Shown in pieces: positions 2,696 through 54,044 of a stretch of 64,000 nt of DNA. The stretch is from assembly GCA_043812495.1 (NCBI GenBank), contig JBDRMG010000008.1, positions 1,516 through 65,515 on the forward strand. The letters run 5' to 3'. Source of the DNA: Candidatus Omnitrophota bacterium (lineage in GTDB: Bacteria; Omnitrophota; Gorgyraeia; Zapsychrales; JBDRMG01). Position numbers and translations under genes: made by a program. Positions within the stretch are counted from its first letter, which is position 1; each line of letters opens with the position of its first letter. The notes beneath the pieces were generated by a model. It saw nothing but the letters and a program-made list of their open reading frames with translations, ran no database searches and was not told the DNA's origin.

Positions 2696-2767
2696 AATAT
2701 CGAATAAATTCATTTTTTATTTTATAATATTTATGGAAATATTATTATTTCATTTGCTTAATTCCTC

Positions 2768-2874
2768 GCCCCGCTGCTTTCTTGCGAAAGCAGAAAGCGG
2801 GGCGAGGTCAATTCGGCCATGCACTTATGTTCTGCCGACTAATCGTCGGCATCCATAAGTGCAGGCCTCATTGA
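2768..2874 (+). repeat. Modular palindromic intergenic element, copy A (GC hairpin; 5' arm GGTCAATTCGGCCATGCACTTATG; variable inner hairpin; 3' arm CATAAGTGCAGGCCTCATTGA)
   Basis: Seen directly. The arms form a bulged stem of about 22 bp. The element ends 20 nt before the receiver start codon. Four related copies occur elsewhere in the window. Confidence 0.85.
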
Positions 2875-2894
2875 TCAAGAGGAACGAGGAAAGT

Positions 2895-5574: not shown

Positions 5575-7301
5575 AGAAAAGCATGTCTTTCTCAAGCTTG
5601 AGTAACGGCTGGCTCATTGCCCTATTGGTTTTGGCAACATGCTTGGCTTACGGGCGATTTTTGGATAATCAATTTATTTGGGATGATTATCTTGTGCTTA
5701 AAAAGAATTCCTTTGTCCATTCTTGGAAGAATTTTCCTAAACTTTTCAGTCCCGAGTACATTACATCCCCCTCTCAGGTCTATGATGTTGGCAAGAAAGA
5801 TATCGGAGCCGGAGAACTGACCTACCGTCCCGTTTCGACGTTAACGTATTTTATTGAGTTTTCCTTTTGGCAGAAAAACCCCCTTGGGTATCATTTAACC
5901 AATCTTTTTCTACATATCTTAAATGTACTTTTAGTGTTTTGGTTCGTTCGTTTATTAAGCAAGGAACGAATGATTTCATTCGTCGCAGCCCTCATCTTTG
6001 CCCTTCATCCGGTTGGCTCAGAAGTTGTTTACAATATTTCTTTTCGGGAAGATCTCCTCGCATGCTTTTTTTGCCTGTTATCCTTTATTTTCTATATTCG
6101 CCTTGATTTGAAAGAAGGCCTTAAGAAAACGTTTTTCTATTCCCTATCTGTTCTGTTTTATTTTCTAGGCATTTTTTCTAAAGAAATGGCGATCACCTTG
6201 CCTATTCTACTTGTTGTTCACGATATCTATATTGCATTGCCGGGCGGGCGGACTCAATTATTCCAACGGATAAAATCGCGCTATTTCGGCTATATCCTGG
6301 TGACTTTATTTTATCTTTGGGTTTGGTTCTTTCCCATGGCGCGTCATCCGGAAGAAATGATTACTTATCCCTGCGAAAGCCTTTTTCTTAATATCCTAAC
6401 TATGATAAAGGTGTTTGCCAATTATGTATATTGGCTTTTCTTGCCCTTCACGGTTCACGCGACCATTCCTGATGGGGCCTATTTTGTGCGGACAGTTTTT
6501 GCATGGGATGTTCTTCTATCCTTTTTGGTCATCATTCTTTCTTTGATTTATGCGGTCCAAACATTCAAGACAAATCGTACGATTTGTTTCGGTTTGACAT
6601 GGTTTTTCATCGTACTTCTGCCGGTTTCCAATATTCTTCCTATCCAGAATATTATTGCGGCGAGGTATCTTTATCTTCCTATGGTCGGATTTTGTCTCGT
6701 GATCAGTTATTTCTTCTTCGGGATTCTCCTCAAGAGCCAATTTTTGGGAAGAAGTATTTATAAGACAACCATCAAGAGTTCATTGATAGGCCTTATGGTT
6801 TGTTATGTGTTGCTGACCTTTGCCAGAGGCTATACGTGGAGAAATGATATTACGCTATGGAAGGAAATTGTTCGTTTCTATCCTCAGAGTATTAGGGCTC
6901 ATAAGAGCTTGGCCTTTATCTATGCCAATGAGGGTTTTAAGGACAAAGCGATTCAAGAGTATTCTCAAGCCAAGAAATTGAACCCCAATGATGTTGAAGC
7001 CCGCTATGCATTAGGCCAGCTTTTTCTTTTTCAGGGAATCTTAGATAAGGCTCAAGAAGAGTTTCAGGCCGTTATTGAGCGTGATAAAAAAATGGACATT
7101 GCTTATAATAATTACTGCATGGCATTGTATTATAATCAAAGGCAGGATGAATCGATCACGTGTTTCCTCAAGATGATTGAGGAGCATCCGGGCTCTGCAA
7201 AGCCATATGAGAATCTTGGGATGATTTATGAAAAGATGGGTAAGGCCCAAGAAGCCCGAAAGATGCGGGATAAAGCCCGCCAGATAGAAGAGAATAATTG
7301 A
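5571..7301 (+). CDS. Polytopic membrane protein, GT-C/PMT-like, with C-terminal TPR repeats
   Basis: About 11 predicted TM helices, then TPR-like repeats (AHKSLAFIYANEGFKDKAIQEYSQAKKLNPND...). Follows the Dpm1-like GT2. Confidence 0.6.
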   Translation: MKKSMSFSSLSNGWLIALLVLATCLAYGRFLDNQFIWDDYLVLKKNSFVHSWKNFPKLFSPEYITSPSQVYDVGKKDIGAGELTYRPVSTLTYFIEFSFWQKNPLGYHLTNLFLHILNVLLVFWFVRLLSKERMISFVAALIFALHPVGSEVVYNISFREDLLACFFCLLSFIFYIRLDLKEGLKKTFFYSLSVLFYFLGIFSKEMAITLPILLVVHDIYIALPGGRTQLFQRIKSRYFGYILVTLFYLWVWFFPMARHPEEMITYPCESLFLNILTMIKVFANYVYWLFLPFTVHATIPDGAYFVRTVFAWDVLLSFLVIILSLIYAVQTFKTNRTICFGLTWFFIVLLPVSNILPIQNIIAARYLYLPMVGFCLVISYFFFGILLKSQFLGRSIYKTTIKSSLIGLMVCYVLLTFARGYTWRNDITLWKEIVRFYPQSIRAHKSLAFIYANEGFKDKAIQEYSQAKKLNPNDVEARYALGQLFLFQGILDKAQEEFQAVIERDKKMDIAYNNYCMALYYNQRQDESITCFLKMIEEHPGSAKPYENLGMIYEKMGKAQEARKMRDKARQIEENN

Positions 7302-7663: not shown

Positions 7664-8611
7664 ATGTTGCCTATTTCTTTTCAAACACTCTCGGCGGCTA
7701 TTCTGCAAATTCTTTTAATGGGCGCCTGCGGTTATATGCTGTTTAAAAAACGGCTCATCGATGAGGCGGGGTTGGATCTTCTGACGCGGCTTTTGATGAA
7801 TTTCTTCCTGCCGATCTTTATGTTTTATCAGCTGACCCAAAGGTTTCGGTTTTCCGTTTATCCGGATTGGTGGCTGTATCCGGTCTTGAGTTTTATCATT
7901 ACAGCGGTGGCCTTGGTGCTTAGCCGTTTGGTTCTTGCACTTAGCCAAAAAGTGAAATGCCCAAAGGAATTTATCAGCCTTTGTGTCTTCCAGAATTCCG
8001 GTTATATTCCTTTAATTTTAGTAGCGACTCTTTTTGAAGGACAACAGGCGGAAGATTTATTTGTCTATATTTTTCTATTTCTCATCGGCTTTAATCTGAC
8101 GATGTGGTCCCTGGGAACGTGGTTTGTCGCAAGTCAGAAAACGTCAAGATTTCAGATAAGAGAATTCTTTAATCCGCCTCTAATCGCCCTCTTGATCGCA
8201 TTTGGCTTGATTGCCTTAGGGTGGCAGCGTTTTGTGCCGCCGTTAATTCTGAAGCCCATGAAATTATTCAGTCAGTGTGTTTTTCCTCTGGCGATGATTA
8301 TGGTCGGAGGAAATCTGGGGCGCATACAAGTAAACGATATCCGCCCCAAAGAGATCATTCCGTTGGTGCTAACAAAATTGATCTTGCTTCCGCTTTGTGG
8401 CCTAGGAATAATTCTTCTTTTTCGTCTTCAGGGTCCCATGGCGTTTATTCTCATCCTGGAAACAGCCGTTCCGAGCGCGATTTCTTTGTCGATTATTTCC
8501 CGCCATTATCAAGTGGAGGAGTGCCTGATTAATCAGGGATTGCTGTTCACGCATTTAGCGAGCATTGTGACCATCCCTACGTTTCTCTCAATCTATAATT
8601 TGCTCCAATAA
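7664..8611 (+). CDS. AEC (auxin efflux carrier) family membrane transporter
   Basis: Ten-TM architecture. The N-terminal and C-terminal halves are typical of PF03547. Confidence 0.7.
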   Translation: MLPISFQTLSAAILQILLMGACGYMLFKKRLIDEAGLDLLTRLLMNFFLPIFMFYQLTQRFRFSVYPDWWLYPVLSFIITAVALVLSRLVLALSQKVKCPKEFISLCVFQNSGYIPLILVATLFEGQQAEDLFVYIFLFLIGFNLTMWSLGTWFVASQKTSRFQIREFFNPPLIALLIAFGLIALGWQRFVPPLILKPMKLFSQCVFPLAMIMVGGNLGRIQVNDIRPKEIIPLVLTKLILLPLCGLGIILLFRLQGPMAFILILETAVPSAISLSIISRHYQVEECLINQGLLFTHLASIVTIPTFLSIYNLLQ

Positions 8612-9189: not shown

Positions 9190-9335
9190 TCGGGGGTGAC
9201 AAGGTCTCGACTCTGCTTCGCCCAAATGTTTTCACGTTGGGCTTCGCAGAGTCTTCACAGGCAATAATAGGCGAAGCAGCCCTACGAAGCTCCCAAACGA
9301 AAGTTTTGGAGCGAAGTGGGGTAAATATAGACTTT
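9190..9335 (+). repeat. Degenerate duplicate of the ssrA 5' end (GGGGGTGACAAGGTCTCGAC) fused to a copy of the ssrA 3'-flank hairpin element
   Basis: 9192-9212 matches the tmRNA 5' end (9354-9375) at about 20 of 23 positions. 9209-9330 aligns with 9754-9860 (CTTCGCCCAAATGTTTTC vs CTTCGCTCAAATGTTTC; CCCTACGAAGCTCCCAAACGAAAG vs GCTCTACGAAGCCAAACGCGAAGG). Confidence 0.65.
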
Positions 9336-9353: not shown

Positions 9354-9753
9354 GGGGGTGAAAAGGGTTCGACTTAGGTTCGACAGCGTATAAGTGGCAT
9401 GCGGAGGAAGCTTGGTAGGCCTCCTTAATCATCCAAGCACCAAATAAACGCAAAAGAAAACGCGTTATTACTAGCGAAAGCTAGCTCCATTGTTGAGCCT
9501 GTTTTCGCTGGCGAAACAGTCTCAGTTATTCGATAACTGAGCCCTCTTATCAGCAATGCCTGTGGGCTGATAAAAGGTCGCAAGCAGGCTGGTTTCGCCG
9601 GTTGCTTTCACTGGCGGAATAAGACTTAAGAAAGCTGGTCCTGACTACGTTTGTCTGTTTAGAAGGCCAGGATGAGATTCAAAAAATAGACTAAGCATGT
9701 AGAGGCTTATACACTGTAACCCAAGGACGCGAGTTCGATTCTCGCCACCTCCA
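9354..9753 (+). ncRNA. ssrA: tmRNA (ssrA)
   Basis: 5' GGGGGTGAAAAGGGTTCGAC and 3' ...GACTAAGCATGTAG...GGACGCGAGTTCGATTCTCGCCACCTCCA match the conserved tRNA-like ends of tmRNA (compare E. coli GGGGCUGAUUCUGGAUUCGAC ... GACUAAGCAUGUAG ... GGGUUCAACUCCCGCCAGCUCCA). Acceptor pairing GGGGGTG/CACCTCC. Immediately downstream of smpB. Confidence 0.85.
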
Positions 9754-9945
9754 TTCTTCTTCGCTCAAATGTTTCGTCTCCCTTCGGTCGACTGCACGTT
9801 TGAGCTTCGAAGAATAAATTCTGCCGAAGAAGAATGCTCTACGAAGCCAAACGCGAAGGACCCCGATGATATATCGGGGACGAAGCATTTTGGCGTAGTA
9901 GAGCACTATTCCTTTTCAATTCTTTCCATAAGACATAGTTACTTT

Positions 9946-17932: not shown

Positions 17933-18397
17933 TTGATGAAACGGATTTTTATTATTGGTTTAGCTATTTTGTTTATTAGCGGTTTCCCTCCTTTTATCAT
18001 GGCACAGAATGATGACAGTCCAATGAAGGATCAGGGCATGATGATGGTCCCTATGACGAGCGGCGCAGGTATGATGGGTGAACAGGGCATGATGGGGCAG
18101 AAGAAGATAAAAGGAATGCACCCGATGGCCGGCATGATGATGAAGGCCATGACGGAAAAAACCCTTGTCCCAACCGAAGATGGAGGCGTTATCGTTTTAG
18201 TGGGCAATAAGTTAACGAAATATGACAAGAATCTTAATCTTGTCAAGGAAGTCGAAATAAAAGTCGATACCGAAGCCATGCGTCAGAATATGATGGATAT
18301 GATAAAAAACTGCCCCATGATGAAGGGCATGATGATGAATGAAAGCGCAACATCCGATCAGCCCGGTGATGAAGGGGCGCCGACAACCGGCAAATAA
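17933..18397 (+). CDS. Secreted methionine-rich protein (Met-rich repeats; possible Cu(I)/Ag(I)-binding or oxidant-sink periplasmic protein)
   Basis: Signal peptide. About 25% Met in clusters (GMMMVPM, GAGMMGEQGMMGQ, MHPMAGMMMKAM, CPMMKGMMMNE). Strong RBS AAGGAGG. Confidence 0.6.
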   Translation: MMKRIFIIGLAILFISGFPPFIMAQNDDSPMKDQGMMMVPMTSGAGMMGEQGMMGQKKIKGMHPMAGMMMKAMTEKTLVPTEDGGVIVLVGNKLTKYDKNLNLVKEVEIKVDTEAMRQNMMDMIKNCPMMKGMMMNESATSDQPGDEGAPTTGK

Positions 18398-18414
18398 TAA
18401 GAATTATAGCGATC

Positions 18415-18443
18415 CCTGCCTGTGAACAGGCAGGGATTTTTTT
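18415..18443 (+). terminator. Rho-independent terminator (CCCTGCCTG-tgaa-CAGGCAGGG followed by T7)
   Basis: Read directly after the Met-rich gene stop. Confidence 0.8.
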
Positions 18444-18497
18444 ATTGGAAGTATGCAAAAAAGAAAGCTAGAATGATAGAAATATCTCAGCTGGAAT

Positions 18498-18686
18498 TTT
18501 CGGATATTATTCTACTTTGCATAAGCAATGAAAATGATGGTATATGTCCTTCTTCGTCCGCCATTGTTTCGTTGGCGGACTCCGAAGGATTCCTCCATAG
18601 CCTTGGCGAAGGAGAACTTCGTAGAATATTCTCGTTGGAGTAATTTTCCGAAGCCTATACCGTTGCTTGCTATTGGTAAGGCGAAG
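18498..18686 (+). repeat. Structured intergenic repeat family 'R', copy 1 (contains an internal partial tandem duplication)
   Basis: Shares TATTCTACTTTGCATAA..CTTCGTAGAATATTCTC..CCGAAGCCT.TACC..GGCGAAGGAGAATA with 52932-53050. Copy 1 has an extra unit of about 70 nt. Confidence 0.8.
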
Positions 18687-18735
18687 GAGAATAGGATAAG
18701 TTCAAGTAATCTATGCAGATCCATAAGGGGGTTTT

Positions 18736-19479
18736 ATGAAGAAGTTCATGACCTGGCAGGTCGGTTTAGGGTTGGGTTTGATCGCACTTTCGGCAACGGT
18801 TTATTTCATTCATTACCTTATTTTCAGAGACGCCCACCATATTTTTATTTATCTCGTTGGAGATATTGCCTTTGTATTCTTAGAAGTTTTAATGGTGGCG
18901 CTCGTGATTCACGAATTGCTTATCCATCGGGAAAAGCAGTCTTTGCTTCATAAACTTAACATGGTCATCGGAGTATTTTTTAGTGAAGTCGGAACGCATT
19001 TGCTCAAAACCATAACAGGTTTTATGGCTGAATCTTTTCAGGCGGATAAAGATTTGATTGTAACCAAGGACTGGTCAGAAAAAGATTTTTACAAGAAGAC
19101 CAAGCAATTTAGAGACTATGCTTTTCCGATCAAAAGCGAACACGGCGATTTGATATCCTTAAGAGATTTTTTGATAGAAAAAAGGCCGCTTTTGGTCAAT
19201 CTCTTGGAAAATCCGAATCTTTTAGAGCATGAATCTTTCACGGATTGCCTATGGGCGGTGTTCCATTTGGCCGAAGAACTCTCCTTCAGAAAAGATTTCG
19301 GACAATTACCCGAAACAGATTATCAGCACCTCTCCGGAGACATTCAAAGAGTCTATAGGGTCCTGATTGTCCAGTGGTTGTCCTATATGAAACATCTCAA
19401 GGACGATTATCCGTATCTGTTTTCCCTTGCCGCGAGGAGAAATCCTTTTGACAGAAATGCTTCGATTGTTATTCATTAA
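18736..19479 (+). CDS. Hypothetical membrane-anchored protein (2 N-terminal TM helices plus a soluble domain)
   Basis: ORF with RBS-like GGGGG upstream. I recognise no motif. Confidence 0.5.
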   Translation: MKKFMTWQVGLGLGLIALSATVYFIHYLIFRDAHHIFIYLVGDIAFVFLEVLMVALVIHELLIHREKQSLLHKLNMVIGVFFSEVGTHLLKTITGFMAESFQADKDLIVTKDWSEKDFYKKTKQFRDYAFPIKSEHGDLISLRDFLIEKRPLLVNLLENPNLLEHESFTDCLWAVFHLAEELSFRKDFGQLPETDYQHLSGDIQRVYRVLIVQWLSYMKHLKDDYPYLFSLAARRNPFDRNASIVIH

Positions 19480-19483
19480 CTTT

Positions 19484-19570
19484 TCAATGAGGCCTGCGCT
19501 TATGGATGCCGCGCCCGCCATTGATTCAGTGGCGGGCGGGGCAGAACATAAGTGCATGGCCGAATTGACC
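19484..19570 (-). repeat. Modular palindromic intergenic element, copy B (minus orientation; inner hairpin carries the CCCGCCCGCCA/TGGCGGGCG module)
   Basis: The reverse complement reads GGTCAATTCGGCCATGCACTTATG-ttc-[hairpin]-tc-CATAAGCGCAGGCCTCATTGA. Confidence 0.8.
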
Positions 19571-19617
19571 CAGCACTAATTTTGTAATCCTATTGACATG
19601 CAAAAATTAGTGCTGGG
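19569..19617 (+). promoter_or_regulatory. Perfect 15 bp inverted repeat CCCAGCACTAATTTT/AAAATTAGTGCTGGG whose 19 nt loop contains TTGACA; candidate operator/promoter for the MarC-family gene
   Basis: Read directly. A related half-site motif, CGCTAAATTTT-aga-AAAATTAGCG, lies inside element copy C (44503-44525). Confidence 0.5.
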
Positions 19618-28546: not shown

Positions 28547-28700
28547 AGCCCCAAGGGAATTTCTATCGATGGGGCTCACCCTGAGCAAGCCCAAAGGGCG
28601 AGCCGAAGGGTCTCTTACTAGGGATCCTTCGACTCCGCTCCGACTAGGGTCGGAGCTTCGCTCAGGATTTCGGGGTCGAAACACCACGACCCCTCAAATA
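28547..28700 (+). other. GC-rich multi-hairpin intergenic segment (candidate structured leader or ncRNA)
   Basis: Nested stems: GAGCCCC/GGGGCTC; CCTGAGCAAGC/GCTTCGCTCAGG; CCGAC-tag-GGTCGG; GGGGTCG/CGACCCC. Local GC is much higher than in the flanks. Confidence 0.4.
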
Positions 28701-28701
28701 A

Positions 28702-31380
28702 ATGATCTATTTGTTATCTAATAAAGGGACGAAAACAAAGTACCAAGCCAAGAAGCGCAAGGTCAAGGATTCGCGCGTTGATGCGTTCGACGACACCCAA
28801 ATCCCGCCCTTTAGGGCGGGGAAACGGGCGCCGCTCAGCATCAACCCTGAGCAAATCCCGGCCTTTAGGCCGGGGTGCGTCGAACGGGTTGATTACTCCA
28901 AGGTGATTGTCAAAAAACCCTGGGGCTATGAGTATTTGGTTTTTCAAAATGATTATGTGGCGATATGGATGCTGCAAATTATTCCGCAGCGTCGAACATC
29001 CATGCACTGCCACCCAGCCAAAAAGACCGGCCTCATTGTGTTATCCGGAAAAGCCAAACTCCATCATGTGGACGGCGCCCTTGAGCTCGACACCCTAGAT
29101 GGCGTCATGATCGACCCCGGAGTATTTCATTGCACCGAGGCCTTCAATCCTTATCCTTTAACACCTCAATCGGAAAACGGGATCTGGGTTATGGAAATTG
29201 AATCACCACCCATGAAAAGCGATTTGATCCGCCTGGACGATGCTTATGGCCGCAAAAATGAATCCTACGAAGGCCAAAAACATATGGTGCATGAACCGGC
29301 CAAGCGGCTTGAGTTTTCTGTTCCATCAAAGACAAAAATTAGCCATAAGAAATTTTTTAATTGTGATTTCAGTATTCGCCAAGGGTCCTTTAAGACAGAG
29401 CGTCCGCGCGACCATGCCCTTATTTCTGTGATCGGGAAAAATGCACGCGCCAAAAGCAATAATCCTTACTTAAAAATCGGCGCTTTAACAACATTCAAGG
29501 AGTTTGAGAATAAGACACGCCAGGAGGATTTAGGTTCTTATACTTTTCTTGTGATCGAAAGAAAAGAGCAGGTGATGAAGGTTGCGGATTATGTTTTTTC
29601 ATCCATCGCCGAGCTTGGCATCAAACAGGTTTTTGCTGTTTCAGGCGGGGGCGCGATGCATCTTGTGGATTCGCTCGGCCGCCATCCCAAATTGGAATAT
29701 ATTGCAACCTATCATGAGCAAGCGGCCGCGATGGCGGCTGAAGCTTACGCTCGCCTGTCTGATACACCAGGGGCTGCACTTGTGACATCAGGCCCCGGCG
29801 GAACAAATACCATCACCGGTGTTTGTGGGGCGTGGATTGATTCGATCCCTACGATTTTTATCTCGGGGCAGGTGACAACAGATACGCTTTTGCGGAAAAT
29901 GGGCCTGCGTCAATTCGGCATCCAGGAGGCGGATATTGTCAGTCTTGTAAAGCCAATCACAAAATATGCCGTAACGGTGACCGATCCAAAAACAATTAAA
30001 TATCATGTGCAAAAAGCTATTCATCTGGCGACGAGCGGCCGGCCCGGTCCGGTGTGGTTAGATATTCCGCTTGATGTGCAAAGTAAACTCCTTAACATTG
30101 ATGAACTGAAATCCTTTACGCCAAAGAAAGACACGCTGTCTTTGCAAGGCAAACAACTCAAAAAAGAAACCGCCAAAGCGCTGGCCCTTTTGAAAAAAGC
30201 CAAGCGGCCCGTTCTTATTAGCGGCTACGGTGTCCGCCTGGCTAAGGCAACAAATGAATTTCAAAAGCTTTTGACATTACTCAATATTCCCCTTGTGTCA
30301 TCGTGGACGTCGAGCGATCTTGTAGATACAAAACATCGGCTTTATGTGGGTCGAGGCGGCATTATGGGTGAGAGAGCCGCGAATTTTGCCGTGCAGAATG
30401 CCGATGTGCTTTTGATTATTGGCTCAAGGATGTCCATTCCTCAAGTAGGCTATAATTATCGCGCCTTTGCCCGCGAAGCCAAAAAGATTGTTGTGGATAT
30501 CGACAGTGTTGAATTAAAAAAGAAATCTCTGAAACCCGATCTTGCGATTCGTACCGATGCCAAAGATTTTATTGCGGAGTTAACACGTCAGTTTCAAAGT
30601 ACGCGCGTAAAACTTGGAAACAACCAATGGCGCGCAAAATGCCAAGGATGGAAAAAACGCTATCCGGTCGTTTTACCGGAGTATCGACAAAATAAAAAAG
30701 GTGTGAACTCATTTTATTTTATCGATGTCCTTTCGAAAAAATTAAAAAAGGACGCCATTGTGGTCACCGACATGGGAACAAGTTTTACCTGCACCATGCA
30801 GACCTTTAAGGTGAAAAAGGGCCAGCGTCTTTTTACCTCAAGCGGACACGCCTCCATGGGATTCGGACTTCCCGGGGCGATCGGGGCTTGCTTCGGCAGC
30901 GGTCGAAAAAAGGTCATTTGCGTGAGCGGAGACGGCGGTTTACAGATGAATATTCAGGAATTACAAACCCTTATTCATTATCGCCTGCCCGTCATTTTAT
31001 TCGTCTTGAACAACCAAGGATATCTGACGATCAAGCTGATGCAGCAAAATCATTTTGGGCGATATGTGGGTTCGGATGCCGGAAGCGGTGTGAGTTTTCC
31101 TGATATCGTCAAAGTGGCGCGGGCCTATGGTATCCGTGCGACAAAGATCAGTAATCAAAAACAATTACGCGGAAAGATCGACAGAATATTGGCCGAACGC
31201 GGACCGTTTGTCTGCGAAATTGTTATGCCCGAAGATCAACCGTTGATTCCAAGGGTCTCATCGCTCAAGAAACCAGACGGCACGATTATCTCACGGCCCC
31301 TGGAGGATCTCTACCCGTTTTTGAGCCGCGAAGAATTTGCGAAAAATATGATAGTCAAACCTTTTGAACCACTCAAATGA
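28702..31380 (+). CDS. Fusion protein: N-terminal cupin domain and C-terminal thiamine-diphosphate-dependent enzyme (acetolactate-synthase/YerE-like fold)
   Basis: Cupin core (WGYEYLVF...MHCHP...GLIVLSGKAKL). TPP-enzyme N-terminal domain (VFAVSGGGAMHLVDSL). TPP-binding GDGG...NN motif (VSGDGGLQMNIQELQT...VLNNQGY). The real start is probably near 28880, not 28702. Confidence 0.7.
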   Translation: MIYLLSNKGTKTKYQAKKRKVKDSRVDAFDDTQIPPFRAGKRAPLSINPEQIPAFRPGCVERVDYSKVIVKKPWGYEYLVFQNDYVAIWMLQIIPQRRTSMHCHPAKKTGLIVLSGKAKLHHVDGALELDTLDGVMIDPGVFHCTEAFNPYPLTPQSENGIWVMEIESPPMKSDLIRLDDAYGRKNESYEGQKHMVHEPAKRLEFSVPSKTKISHKKFFNCDFSIRQGSFKTERPRDHALISVIGKNARAKSNNPYLKIGALTTFKEFENKTRQEDLGSYTFLVIERKEQVMKVADYVFSSIAELGIKQVFAVSGGGAMHLVDSLGRHPKLEYIATYHEQAAAMAAEAYARLSDTPGAALVTSGPGGTNTITGVCGAWIDSIPTIFISGQVTTDTLLRKMGLRQFGIQEADIVSLVKPITKYAVTVTDPKTIKYHVQKAIHLATSGRPGPVWLDIPLDVQSKLLNIDELKSFTPKKDTLSLQGKQLKKETAKALALLKKAKRPVLISGYGVRLAKATNEFQKLLTLLNIPLVSSWTSSDLVDTKHRLYVGRGGIMGERAANFAVQNADVLLIIGSRMSIPQVGYNYRAFAREAKKIVVDIDSVELKKKSLKPDLAIRTDAKDFIAELTRQFQSTRVKLGNNQWRAKCQGWKKRYPVVLPEYRQNKKGVNSFYFIDVLSKKLKKDAIVVTDMGTSFTCTMQTFKVKKGQRLFTSSGHASMGFGLPGAIGACFGSGRKKVICVSGDGGLQMNIQELQTLIHYRLPVILFVLNNQGYLTIKLMQQNHFGRYVGSDAGSGVSFPDIVKVARAYGIRATKISNQKQLRGKIDRILAERGPFVCEIVMPEDQPLIPRVSSLKKPDGTIISRPLEDLYPFLSREEFAKNMIVKPFEPLK
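28797..28875 (+). repeat. Two tandem 24 nt hairpin repeats CAAATCCCG(C/G)CCTTTAGG(G/C)CGGGG separated by 30 nt, upstream of the cupin domain
   Basis: Read directly. They lie inside the annotated 5' extension of the 28702 ORF and are probably leader sequence rather than coding. Confidence 0.6.
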
Positions 31381-40705: not shown

Positions 40706-40765
40706 TCATTTGTCAGCAATAAATTTCAACCAAATCTGCCGGGTTCTCGGTCCGTCAAACTCCAT
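40706..40765 (-). pseudogene. Diverged duplicate of the last 19 codons of yjbQ (encodes MEFDGPRTRQIWLKFIADK* versus the true MEFDGPRTREVWLKFISD*)
   Basis: About 85% nucleotide identity to 40842-40895. The two copies are separated by the 73 nt hairpin element. Confidence 0.7.
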
Positions 40766-40838
40766 TCTTCTTCGCTCTCATGTTTTCACATGAGAGCTCC
40801 GAAGCAATTTCAAACTTTAGAGCGAAGCAGAACCTTTT
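40766..40838. repeat. Hairpin element of the TTCTTCTTCGCTC family, inserted between the true and duplicated yjbQ 3' ends
   Basis: TTCTTCTTCGCTCT...AGAGCGAAGCAGAA outer stem. Inner hairpin GCTCTCATG-ttttca-CATGAGAGC. The 18-mer CTCCATTCTTCTTCGCTC (40760-40777) is identical to 9749-9766 at the ssrA 3' end. Confidence 0.7.
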
Positions 40839-41234
40839 TCAATCTGAAATAAATTTTAACCAAACTTCTCTGGTTCTCGGTCCGTCAAACTCCATCAAAA
40901 AGATCCCTTGCCATGTTCCCAACTGCAGATTTCCGTTCTCCACGATAAAAGTCTGAGAAAAACCCATGAGGCTGCCCTTGATATGGGCATCGGCGTTATC
41001 TTCCGCATGATTAAATCCGAAATCTTGCGGCACGGTTTTCTTCAAGAAATAATGGATGTCCCGCTTGACATCGGGATCCGCGTTCTCATTGACCGTTAAG
41101 GCTGCCGTGGTATGAGGAGAGTAGACGACTAAAATCCCTGAGTCGCATTTTTCCTTGCGAAGATAGTCTTTGATGTCAGGTGTTAAGTCAATAATTTGCT
41201 CTCTTTGGGTTGTTGGAACGTTGAACTTATACAT
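40839..41234 (-). CDS. YjbQ/UPF0047-family protein
   Basis: Conserved UPF0047 segments (GILVVYSPHTTAALTVNEN...DAHIKGSLMG...LGTWQGIFLMEFDGPR). Confidence 0.8.
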   Translation of the reverse strand: MYKFNVPTTQREQIIDLTPDIKDYLRKEKCDSGILVVYSPHTTAALTVNENADPDVKRDIHYFLKKTVPQDFGFNHAEDNADAHIKGSLMGFSQTFIVENGNLQLGTWQGIFLMEFDGPRTREVWLKFISD

Positions 41235-44339: not shown

Positions 44340-44405
44340 GTTTTTATTGATTACAATGGATCGGAAGGATAATAAGAGAATTATCATCATTTAATTTGCT
44401 TACTT

Positions 44406-44559
44406 CCCCTCGTCCGCCATCGATTTTAGCAGTGGACTCGGGGTCAATTCGGCCATGCACTTATGTTTCCGTCAATTCGATAGAATCGAATTGACGAGAC
44501 CTCGCTAAATTTTAGAAAATTAGCGGACATTATCATTCCATAAGTGCAGGCCTCATGGA
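44406..44559 (+). repeat. Modular palindromic intergenic element, copy C (longest; inner hairpin GTCAATTCGAT/ATCGAATTGAC plus inserted CGCTAAATTTT/AAAATTAGCG module)
   Basis: 5' arm 44442-44465. 3' arm 44538-44559 (CATAAGTGCAGGCCTCATgGA). Ends 14 nt before the cusB-like start. Confidence 0.85.
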
Positions 44560-44573
44560 AAGGAGTATGAACC

Positions 44574-45839: not shown

Positions 45840-45880
45840 TTAATAAAGAAAAGGAAATATTATAGCTGCATTTGCTTAAT

Positions 45881-45982
45881 CCCCGCCCGCCATTGATTCA
45901 GTGGCGGGCGGGGTCAATTCGGCCATGCACTTATGTTCTCCGCCATAATTCGTGGCGGATCCATAAGCGCAGGCCTCATTGA
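45881..45982 (+). repeat. Modular palindromic intergenic element, copy D (GC hairpin CCCCGCCCGCCA-ttgattcag-TGGCGGGCGGGG plus arms)
   Basis: 5' arm 45912-45935. 3' arm 45961-45982. Ends 14 nt before the ATG at 45997. Confidence 0.85.
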
Positions 45983-45996
45983 GAGAAAGAATCTTC

Positions 45997-51018: not shown

Positions 51019-52947
51019 ATGACGGGTAAAACAGTCCATAAACTCCGGTTCAAAAATTTCAAGATTCGCCAAAAGCTCATCCTGATCCTGTTGGTCATTT
51101 CTTTGATTCCGCTTTTGGCCGTCAGCATCTATAATTTCTACTACGCAAAATCAGAACTTGAAAAGAAGGCCATTGACCGACTGAAGGCCGTAACCCTGGC
51201 GCGGGAAGCCCATATCAATCACTTCATCCAATTGCGGCAGGAGCAAGCCAAGCAAATTGCCGGCGGTTTTTTGCCTCGTCAGTTAAGAGAATCCGGCCTC
51301 AATGATCCGGAAATTGTTCGCGGTATCCAGGCTGATATTAATGCCGCTTTCTACGATTTAAATCTGGAACCCTCCGGATATTACAAAAATATCGATCAGA
51401 AGACAGACATTGAAATCATCGGCATATGGGATGTTCTCGGGACGATCATCGCCAATACCAACAGAGACCTGATCGGGAAAAAAATGCCCATTGAATATAT
51501 GCAGAATGTCTATAAACAGGGGACATTTTTCGGAGGGCTTGAGAAGGATCCTCTGACCGGAAAGAATTTCTTAATTATCTTAGAACTGATCCGCAATTGG
51601 AGAACAAATGAAATCGTGGGGGCTGTTTCATTAAAGATCAGAGCCAAGACGCTTAATGAAATCACAACCGCCGGAGAAGGCTTAGGCCAGACCGGCGAAA
51701 GCTATATTGTCGATAAGCATTACCGTATGATCACGCCGTCGCGTTTTGCGGATAATGCAATTCTCAAGCTTAGCGTTAAAACCGAAGGGACCCGGGCCTG
51801 CTTTCGGCAAACCAAAGCACCCACCCTCTACAAGAATTATCGGGATACCTTAGTCTTGGGCGTCCAAAGATATCTGCCGGATGAGGATTGGTGTCTTGTA
51901 ACGGAAATTAATGCCAACGAGGCCTTTGCGACGACAGAGGCCCTGCGTAACCGGACGCTCGTGATCGGAGGGCTTTTTCTTTTTGTTATTTTATTCTTGA
52001 CCTATAAAGCCACAGAGTCTTTTGTCCAGCCTATTATCAAACTGCGCAATGCCTCGAGTCAGGTGGCCCAGGGCGATTATGATGTTGTGCTTCATGAAGA
52101 TAGCCAGGATGAAATCGGAGAGCTCTCTAAAGTGTTCAATGAAATGGCCAAAAATCTAACCGCTTTCAAGTCGGAATTGGAAGAAAAAAACAAAGAGCTT
52201 TTTAAGAGCCTTGCGGTATCCACTCAACAGAAGAAGGAATTAAAGAAAGTCAACCAGGAGCTGGATAGTTTCGTTTATACGGCCAGTCATGATCTTCGCG
52301 CACCTTTGCGCGGCATTGCTTCCTTCGCCACTTTCTTAGAAGAAGATTACAAGAACAAACTTGACGATGAAGGGAAAGGCTATATTGACGAAATTCGAAA
52401 AGGCGCGACCAAAATGAACGCCCTCATCGAGGACTTGCTGTCCTTGTCCCGTATTTCCCGCATCAAGAATCCTTACGAAGATGTGCCGATCAGGCCATTG
52501 ATTGATTCCGTCTTGGAGCGCATCAAAGTCGATATCCAAAAGGAAAAAGTCCGCTTGATCATTGCGGAGAATTTGCCGACCGTTTACTGCGACCGCATTA
52601 AGATGGCCGAGGTGTTCTTGAATCTCATTAACAATGCGATCAAATTTTCCTCAAAAAACAACAAAGACCATCCTCAGGTGGAAATTGGCTATATGGCTGA
52701 GGATGACCATCATAAATTTTTCGTAAAAGACAACGGTATCGGGATTGATCCCAAATACCATGAACAAATATTCGGTATCTTTAAACGCTTACATACGGAC
52801 AAGGAATATGAAGGAACGGGAGCGGGTTTAAGCATTATTAAACGCGTAATCGATGATCACCACGGCAAAATTTGGATCGAATCGAAACTCGGACAGGGCG
52901 CCGCGTTCTTTTTTACGATCCCCAAGAATTTATTCTACTTTGCATAA
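51019..52947 (+). CDS. Sensor histidine kinase with periplasmic Cache-like domain, HAMP, HisKA and HATPase_c
   Basis: Two TM helices flank a periplasmic domain of about 270 aa. H-box SHDLRAPL. N, G1 and G2 boxes. Confidence 0.85.
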   Translation: MTGKTVHKLRFKNFKIRQKLILILLVISLIPLLAVSIYNFYYAKSELEKKAIDRLKAVTLAREAHINHFIQLRQEQAKQIAGGFLPRQLRESGLNDPEIVRGIQADINAAFYDLNLEPSGYYKNIDQKTDIEIIGIWDVLGTIIANTNRDLIGKKMPIEYMQNVYKQGTFFGGLEKDPLTGKNFLIILELIRNWRTNEIVGAVSLKIRAKTLNEITTAGEGLGQTGESYIVDKHYRMITPSRFADNAILKLSVKTEGTRACFRQTKAPTLYKNYRDTLVLGVQRYLPDEDWCLVTEINANEAFATTEALRNRTLVIGGLFLFVILFLTYKATESFVQPIIKLRNASSQVAQGDYDVVLHEDSQDEIGELSKVFNEMAKNLTAFKSELEEKNKELFKSLAVSTQQKKELKKVNQELDSFVYTASHDLRAPLRGIASFATFLEEDYKNKLDDEGKGYIDEIRKGATKMNALIEDLLSLSRISRIKNPYEDVPIRPLIDSVLERIKVDIQKEKVRLIIAENLPTVYCDRIKMAEVFLNLINNAIKFSSKNNKDHPQVEIGYMAEDDHHKFFVKDNGIGIDPKYHEQIFGIFKRLHTDKEYEGTGAGLSIIKRVIDDHHGKIWIESKLGQGAAFFFTIPKNLFYFA

Positions 52948-53050
52948 CCAATGGAAATAATAGTATCTGCTTCGTAGAATATTCTCCTCGGAATAATTCT
53001 CCGAAGCCTGTACCATTATGTTCCATTAGTAAGGCGAAGGAGAATAAAGG
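52932..53050 (+). repeat. Structured intergenic repeat family 'R', copy 2
   Basis: Aligns with 18498-18686 apart from a deletion of about 70 nt. The first 16 nt overlap the last codons and stop of the kinase gene. Confidence 0.8.
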
Positions 53051-53106
53051 AAAAAGAGAAGCATACTGAAGAGAATCCTTCATCATAAAAATAAGAAAAT
53101 TGTCTT

Positions 53107-53583
53107 ATGACCCCAGACGCAAACAAGGAACCGATAAAAGATTTTCCCCTGGACATTCTCCTGGTGGAGGATAGTGAAGCGGATATCATCATCACCAAAA
53201 GGGCTTTTAAGAACGCAAAATTAAAGAATAACCTTTTCATTGTCGGCAATGGCCAAGAGTGTCTTGACTTTGTCCGCCATGGGGGCGCTTATCAAGACAA
53301 ACAAAAATATCCGCGACCGGACCTTATTTTTCTCGATGTCAATATGCCCAAGATAGATGGGTTTAGCGTCTTAGAGGTCCTCAAAGAAGAAGAACGAACC
53401 AGGACGATTCCCATCATTATGCTGACAGGATCAAAAAATGAAAGCGATATTATGAAAAGCTATATGCTGGGCGCCAACAGTTTCATTCAGAAGCCCGTAA
53501 CTTATGAAGAATTTGTCGAGATCATCGATGGATTCAACTTTTATTGGCATAGAATTAACCGATTACCTCAGAAAAATCAATAA
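53107..53583 (+). CDS. Single-domain response regulator receiver (158 aa)
   Basis: ILLVEDSEAD...LIFLDVNMPKIDG...MLTGS...K. Confidence 0.8.
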   Translation: MTPDANKEPIKDFPLDILLVEDSEADIIITKRAFKNAKLKNNLFIVGNGQECLDFVRHGGAYQDKQKYPRPDLIFLDVNMPKIDGFSVLEVLKEEERTRTIPIIMLTGSKNESDIMKSYMLGANSFIQKPVTYEEFVEIIDGFNFYWHRINRLPQKNQ

Positions 53584-53960: not shown

Positions 53961-54007
53961 ATTTTACAAGACTTTAAAGAAGAAATAGTTAATTCTTATT
54001 TGCTGTA

Positions 54008-54044
54008 CCCAGCCCGCCGTTGAATCAATGGCGGGCCTCATTGA
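54008..54044 (+). repeat. Modular palindromic intergenic element, truncated copy E (GC hairpin GCCCGCC-gttgaatcaat-GGCGGGC plus the terminal CTCATTGA)
   Basis: Shares the hairpin module and the 3' terminus of copies A-D. Ends 12 nt before the receiver ATG. Confidence 0.65.

Follow-up and report, generated by a model that had tools for sequence, protein, structure and literature searches.

Two related repeats lie on the plus strand of the 64,000-nt stretch of Candidatus Omnitrophota DNA analysed here (the window, whose positions are used throughout unless another locus is named). Copy 1 stands upstream of an MJ1433-like gene, while copy 2 overlaps the 3' end of a histidine kinase gene and precedes a response-regulator receiver gene (Table 1). 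A repeat search of the window aligned the two copies in a 77-nt block (18617-18693 and 52970-53046, 84% identity) and a 40-nt block (18507-18546 and 52930-52969, 88% identity). An 18-mer, TTATTCTACTTTGCATAA, and a 12-mer, GGCGAAGGAGAA, were confined to these elements in the window, against a chance expectation of 0.13 and 0.41 matches. The initial annotation had described two related regions, both upstream of plus-strand genes, and this was borne out (gene starts at 18736 and 53107). Its boundaries for copy 1 (18498-18686) needed refinement, the start having been set 10 nt too early and the end 7 nt too short. The ORFs of 73 and 65 aa over the copies, which it had considered unlikely to be coding, are present and differ by indels.

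Table 1. Features at and around the two repeat copies (window positions).
Feature	Position	Strand	Remarks
Terminator-like hairpin with T run (18411-18438), then promoter-like TTGGAA-18-TAGAAT (18445-18474)	18411-18474	+	consensus scan only
Copy 1, long form of the probable MITE	18508-18693	+	186 nt: TA 18508-18509, 182-nt core 18510-18691, TA 18692-18693; covariance-model score 66 bits
Left terminal inverted repeat, copy 1 (TTCTACTTTGC)	18510-18520	+	pairs with 18681-18691
Internal 70-nt module, copy 1 (TCCTTCTTCG-GC hairpin-CTCCGAAGG-spacer-GGCGAAGGAGAA)	18547-18616	+	at 5' arm/central hairpin junction
Conserved central hairpin, copy 1 (CTTCG-TAGAATATTCTC...AATTTTC-CGAAG)	18617-18653	+	
Right terminal inverted repeat, copy 1 (GCGAAGGAGAA)	18681-18691	+	contains Shine-Dalgarno-like GGAG
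MJ1433-like gene (PF27246/PF27232) downstream of copy 1	18736-19479	+	
Histidine kinase gene, 3' end struck by copy 2	51019-52947	+	
Copy 2, canonical form of the probable MITE	52931-53046	+	116 nt: TA 52931-52932, 112-nt core 52933-53044, TA 53045-53046; covariance-model score 136 bits
Left terminal inverted repeat, copy 2	52933-52943	+	encodes the current end of the kinase (F Y F A stop)
Conserved central hairpin, copy 2	52970-53006	+	-10-like TAGAAT inside
Right terminal inverted repeat, copy 2 (GCGAAGGAGAA)	53034-53044	+	
Putative leftover of the C-terminus with which the kinase formerly ended (KEKEKHTEENPSS plus stop)	53047-53088	+	back in frame once 52933-53046 is deleted
Response-regulator receiver gene downstream of copy 2	53107-53583	+	inferred pre-insertion spacer 18 nt

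The fold obtained for copy 2 was one long, imperfect hairpin (plus strand, MFE -45.7 kcal/mol, z = -7.9), and its minus strand proved just as stable (-48.0 kcal/mol, z = -7.7). Copy 1 gave -66.6 kcal/mol (z = -4.1), and here also both strands fold alike. The self-complementary segments noticed earlier are therefore real.

The family was then sought in one genome per species by means of a degenerate pattern, which brought up the element in several MAGs, and in metagenomes by means of the 17-nt left terminus, which brought up more. A covariance model made from ten canonical copies was used to sort true members from about 30 chance 17-mers; the model that scored the window copies was built on copies from other genomes. 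Pattern scans and covariance model together gave 43 unique insertion sites in Omnitrophota MAGs and metagenomes. Of the 66 metagenome matches to the 17-mer terminus, about 30 were discarded as chance, their interiors being unrelated, and the single pattern match in viral contigs was not recognised by the covariance model. At least five copies occur in one MAG, and three lie within 8 kb of one locus (L056). The initial annotation had held that a model search finding no additional copies would count against a repeat family; the search instead found these 43 sites, in a transposon-like pattern.

The flanks of the 43 sites are unrelated and could not be aligned. The element was the sole sequence common to the window and other genomes at 85-97% identity, with the tmRNA at 75% and orthologous kinases at 62-68%. 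Either window copy resembled copies from other genomes more than it resembled its partner. In one metagenome, two different copies (L057:43-160 and L060:215-332) have different 5' flanks and an identical 40-nt 3' flank, which could reflect recombination between copies, an assembly chimera at a repeat site, or a second adjoining repeat.

Members of the uncultured phylum Omnitrophota are often very small and may be predators or symbionts; to our knowledge, their mobile DNA is almost undescribed. One MAG titled 'uncultured Planctomycetales bacterium' (CAZUJQ01) carries six copies (L004, L024, L025, L027, L036 and L038). However, the named best matches of its LL-diaminopimelate aminotransferase (DapL) were all Candidatus Omnitrophota (65-70% identity), so the label is probably wrong and the genome that of an omnitrophote. 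A spread across phyla was rejected on these grounds and, since this MAG is by its DapL almost certainly from Omnitrophota, the family is regarded as Omnitrophota-specific.

The canonical core has 112 nt and consists of 11-nt terminal inverted repeats, two semi-variable arms and an AT-rich, highly conserved central hairpin. With the flanking dinucleotides, the order is TA, TTCTACTTCGC-ATAA-5' arm-CTTCG-TAGAATATTCTC-loop-GGAATAATTCT-CCGAAGCC-3' arm-TAAG-GCGAAGGAGAA, TA. The terminal inverted repeats (TTCTACTTCGC and GCGAAGGAGAA) are complementary at 10 of 11 positions and were found in all copies; the terminal helix (helix 1) was 98% paired over 39 copies. Termini and central hairpin are nearly invariant, and the arms are variable. 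Core lengths range from 81 to 206 nt with a mode of 112: short variants lack the arms (L012, L029), others have the 3' arm replaced by a GC hairpin (L010, L026), and long variants of 166-206 nt carry a module at the junction of 5' arm and central hairpin (copy 1 of the window, L037, L047, L017). The G+C content is roughly 0.32-0.44, mostly 0.35-0.40, that of the host loci being 0.36-0.50. In most copies, reading frames that enter the element reach a stop after 4-10 codons.

Copy 1 had been thought to carry an extra related unit of about 70 nt that arose by internal tandem duplication. A related unit is indeed present, but its similarity to the adjacent unit was only distant (alignment z about 8). 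It was higher to the modules at the same junction in L037 and L047, two loci of one MAG (z about 11), so we consider the extra unit to be a related module and not a recent tandem duplication. A module at the same internal junction was also seen in L017, and the copy 1 module resembles a free-standing 73-nt element at 40763-40835. The long form differs by one small additional module, which follows the motif grammar of the element and occupies a fixed junction inside it.

Some copies harbour a 20-nt GC palindrome, CCTGCCTGCCGGCAGGCAGG, nested within them (L056:12680-12817, L100:7838-7975, L106:7189-7328 and L056:4832-4950). It occupies three different internal positions in different copies, which hints at another palindrome, far smaller than the MITE and itself mobile or REP-like. 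A similar stem, CCTGCC...GGCAGG, is found in the terminator-like hairpin before copy 1 (18411-18438).

The kinase locus shows what copy 2 has done to its host sequence. The kinase ORF ends ...TIPKNLFYFA and stops within copy 2, as the initial annotation had recognised from the overlap with the last codons. When we removed the core together with one TA (52933-53046), the kinase tail became ...TIPKNLKEKEKHTEENPSS in frame, with its stop 18 nt before the receiver ATG. The restored tail fits what is seen in the orthologues, where TIPK[DN]L[KEHR] leads into a hydrophilic tail. Removal of both TAs, in contrast, left a kinase ending ...TIPKN, without the L-K that is conserved in all orthologues. The order receiver-kinase-receiver is kept in three relatives (L048-L050), whose kinase-receiver spacers are 76, 36 and 15 nt long; the covariance model found the element in none of these three spacers. 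We conclude that copy 2 interrupted the last codons of the kinase, which accounts for its odd C-terminus. Through this insertion the kinase lost a 13-residue hydrophilic tail and gained FYFA and a stop codon, and a hairpin of -45 kcal/mol now sits in the spacer of the kinase-receiver operon.

We also examined the sites in general. A flanking TA was present at 27 of 29 5' ends and 28 of 29 3' ends. At 8 of 39 sites, an ORF of 100 or more codons has a stop codon that starts with the reconstructed TA; 2.5 such sites would be expected with equal probability for every TA within 100 nt (P about 0.002). Among the eight, the L004 site probably involves a spurious antisense ORF, so that the count is 7-8 of 39. 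ORFs at these sites now end in extensions encoded by the element, for example YSPSPY. The surplus of stop-codon and gene-boundary sites may reflect a preference for T-TA-R targets, and may equally reflect the survival of harmless insertions only. The TA at both ends could formally be the element's own rather than a duplication; we read it as a target-site duplication because of the restored kinase frame and the stop-codon sites.

At copy 1, the terminator-like and promoter-like sites upstream would place the element in the 5' UTR of the gene at 18736, which it probably lengthens by a structured segment of 186 nt. The upstream spacers measure 55 and 61 nt in homologues of the MJ1433-like gene, which lack the element there and have different neighbours. 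A further filled site (L004) could be paired with an empty one (L120), the flanks aligning on both sides. The spacer between stop codon and terminator is 29 nt in L120, and 28 nt in L004 after removal of the element and one TA. The nearest empty sites belong to relatives with about 65-79% protein identity. A 154-aa ORF (17933-18397) that immediately precedes copy 1 has a signal-peptide-like start and is extremely rich in methionine, with runs such as GMMMVPM, GMMGEQGMMGQ and MMDMIKNCPMMKGMMMNE.

Taken together, the element is small and non-coding, has terminal inverted repeats, occurs as dispersed copies in either orientation with unrelated flanks, and is present or absent at orthologous sites (the kinase locus in L048-L050, and L004 against L120). 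We therefore put a probability of roughly 85% on both repeats being members of a MITE family, a non-autonomous DNA transposon with TA as its insertion site, which is scattered through Omnitrophota genomes. As a hairpin-shaped non-coding MITE, it would be ordinary selfish DNA rather than a new regulatory RNA. We envisage that a transposase supplied in trans would bind the inverted repeats, and that the element would integrate at a TA, which would become duplicated. TA duplication is the hallmark of elements of the IS630/Tc1-mariner type, and the putative assignment to this type is drawn from the apparent TA duplication alone. In 0.9 Mb of sequence, we found no transposase-like ORF enclosed by an inverted pair of the element's termini with 0.4-4 kb between them, as would mark an autonomous partner. 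One lead for such a partner, in L106, was rejected as an ordinary Shine-Dalgarno match, and the other matches were due to chance or were likewise ordinary Shine-Dalgarno sequences.

Bacterial MITEs are about 100-200 bp long, with inverted repeats, a target-site duplication, 5'-TA-3' termini and long stem-loops; they are mostly intergenic and sometimes fused to ORFs (Delihas, PMC2229807). A literature search for a MITE of Omnitrophota or Planctomycetes returned nothing specific, and the family, undescribed in Rfam and in the literature found, would belong to this known class. The element behaves most like RUP, Correia and ERIC, with which it has no sequence in common. RUP (repeat unit of pneumococcus), a MITE of 107 bp from Streptococcus pneumoniae that IS630-Spn1 presumably mobilises, is similar in its length (about 110 nt here), terminal inverted repeats, TA insertion and TA termini, long stem-loop, stops in the reading frames and many intergenic copies (PMC2229807). 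However, RUP is unrelated in sequence, belongs to another host phylum and has a cognate IS with matching ends, whereas no such IS was found here in 0.9 Mb.

The Correia (NEMIS) elements of Neisseria share the inverted repeats, the TA termini with duplication, two size classes set apart by an internal segment, and a position beside or fused to ORFs, and their transcripts form hairpins that affect neighbouring mRNAs (PMC2229807). They differ in having inverted repeats of 24-26 bp and an unrelated sequence, and are confined to Neisseria. Correia elements also carry promoter-like hexamers; the Omnitrophota element has TAGAAT in its core. The ERIC (IRU) elements of enterobacteria are likewise imperfect palindromes of about 120 nt, intergenic and in regions that are probably transcribed (PMC2229807). 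Their sequence is unrelated, their inverted repeats measure only about 7 bp, and their effects on mRNA stability depend on orientation. Wilson and Sharp reportedly found in 2006 that longer ERIC variants owe their size to insertions of about 70 nt, which occupy fixed positions within the element. The module of the long form parallels the size variants of both ERIC and Correia elements. The Rickettsia palindromic elements (RPE) are also palindromic and MITE-like, and can lie within ORFs and add residues to proteins (PMC2229807), as FYFA and YSPSPY do here. RPEs, however, are in frame and translated through, whereas the Omnitrophota element has early stops and only clips or extends C-termini.

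A different explanation is that the repeats are structured cis-regulatory RNAs or sRNAs, in which the terminal stem sequesters the GGAG at the 3' end and thereby controls the downstream gene. We consider this improbable. The hairpin is strong (z about -8) and both window copies lie upstream of same-strand genes, but the minus strand folds as well as the plus strand, and the window start codons lie 42 and 60 nt downstream of the copies, each with its own context. Between co-directional ORFs the element was more often antisense (18 copies) than sense (8 copies); five further copies lie between divergent and three between convergent genes. The right end GCGAAGGAGAA does resemble a Shine-Dalgarno sequence (GGAG), with a start codon 0-14 nt beyond it in several sense copies (L004, L037, L027, L062, L067, L010, L024 and L106), although these short distances are partly an artefact, since the ORF caller begins each ORF at the first start codon that follows a stop. 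The element is also missing at orthologous loci, and the neighbouring genes are functionally unrelated. When the window and six loci were searched against Rfam 15, no family reached the gathering threshold, and the E-value mode gave only sub-threshold microRNA-precursor hairpins.

The pattern of base changes was evaluated for the same purpose. About 89% of the stem cells in the 39-copy alignment were paired. The non-Watson-Crick cells comprised 55 G·U and 56 A·C (one conserved loop-closing pair set aside), and since the two are equally frequent, the RNA of neither strand is favoured. Compensatory changes, which the initial annotation had looked to as support for an RNA, appeared as a modest covariation signal over the 39 copies (0.074, against 0.060 in a shuffle control that is inflated by relatedness). 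They did not extend to the arms, where cognate duplexes had no advantage over non-cognate ones (-10.4 and -9.4 kcal/mol). One extra base pair of the central stem was C-G in four copies and G-C in four, which points to selection for hairpin formation. As the centre and the ends are much more conserved than the arms, and a modest covariation signal exists besides, we infer some constraint on hairpin formation beyond simple neutral decay. Neither a fixed orientation, nor conservation at orthologous loci, nor strand-specific conservation of structure was seen. Thus, among the candidates first listed for these repeats (sRNA, leader, riboregulator or MITE), the dispersed copies in both orientations favour the MITE, and the excess of antisense copies, the equal G·U and A·C counts, the empty orthologous loci and the lack of an Rfam match speak against the RNAs.

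Very improbable, in our estimation, is a REP/BIME-like palindrome spread by a RAYT (an IS200/IS605-type Y1 transposase) or by recombination, without target-site duplication and with the TA belonging to the element itself. REPs are GC-rich palindromes of 20-40 nt with a GTAG or CGTC tag, and are associated with RAYTs. The mosaic, modular architecture, the small GC palindromes nested in some copies and the small related modules elsewhere in the window would suit such an origin, and so would a GTAG directly before the central palindrome (CTTCGTAGAATATT), which is reminiscent of the GTAG-tagged REPs. However, the element is 112-206 nt long and AT-rich, with clear terminal inverted repeats and TA flanks. 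Deletion with both TAs moreover yields ...TIPKN, whereas deletion with a single TA restores the conserved L-K, and long ORFs run exactly to the TA at 7-8 sites. An immobile repeat, generated by segmental duplication or gene conversion within the genome, would agree with there being only two copies in the 64-kb window, but is effectively refuted by the unrelated flanks of the 43 sites, by copies in many host genomes that are otherwise not alignable, and by the closer likeness of each window copy to copies of other genomes than to its partner.

With the MITE as the preferred reading, regulatory side effects are predicted to be possible, because the right-end GGAG lies near start codons in some copies and a -10-like TAGAAT is found in the core. 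A bolder version, which we think unlikely, is that of an Omnitrophota-wide MITE preferentially tolerated at, or targeted to, stop codons (T-TA-R), with host-adapted ends, that works as a portable switch of translation or mRNA stability. The strongly conserved central hairpin, with its extra C-G or G-C pair, would in that case be a recognition site for a protein or RNase and not a transposition signal. The host-adapted ends would be seen in the in-frame stops in both entry directions, the Shine-Dalgarno sequence held in the terminal stem, and the conserved TAGAAT. If this were so, sense insertions just upstream of starts could act as switches.

For annotation, the element should be masked, since the 65-73-aa ORFs and the FYFA and YSPSPY tails are not genuine, and such hairpins should not be taken for riboswitch-like RNAs. 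The MITE family may also serve as a marker for strain typing and for mis-joined MAG contigs, and as a handle towards its transposase.

Small structured modules with the motif grammar of the MITE were seen at 9206-9322 and 9750-9895, which flank the tmRNA (9354-9756), and at 40763-40835. Their layout is TTCTnCTTCGC, hairpin, CTCCGAAGC, spacer, GCGAAGnAGAA, and one of them starts exactly at the 3' end of the tmRNA gene. The small modules matched the covariance model of the family weakly (E = 0.35 and 0.93). The module at 40763-40835 is flanked by 53-nt direct repeats (40713-40765 and 40843-40895, 85% identical), each of which encodes the ORF start MEFDGPRTR(Q/E)(I/V)WLKFI on the minus strand. 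As both repeats encode this start, the 5' end of a gene has seemingly been duplicated around the module.

The window contains a second repeat family, at 2735-2877 (+), 19472-19574 (-), 44377-44571 (+), 45853-45985 (+) and, in part, 54001-54040 (+). It consists of a long palindrome, TCAATTCGGCCATGCACTTATG ... CATAAGTGCAGGCCTCATTGA, with variable GC-rich hairpins such as GCCCGCCATTGATTCAGTGGCGGGC, one of which resembles a hairpin in the copy 1 module (18555-18581). The palindrome is often followed by a Shine-Dalgarno sequence and ATG, and one copy lies antisense at the 3' end of a gene. No Rfam match was obtained for this palindrome family. The same motif was seen in another Omnitrophota MAG, in the flank of L010 just after position 7863, beside a variant of the MITE family. 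Finally, two GC-rich stretches with CGAAG/CTTCG, at 28583-28641 and 28827-28892, are 80-82% identical to L029 at about 6607-6668 and 925-991, and possibly represent a further repeat family. The first stands just upstream of the ORF at 28702 and the second inside it.
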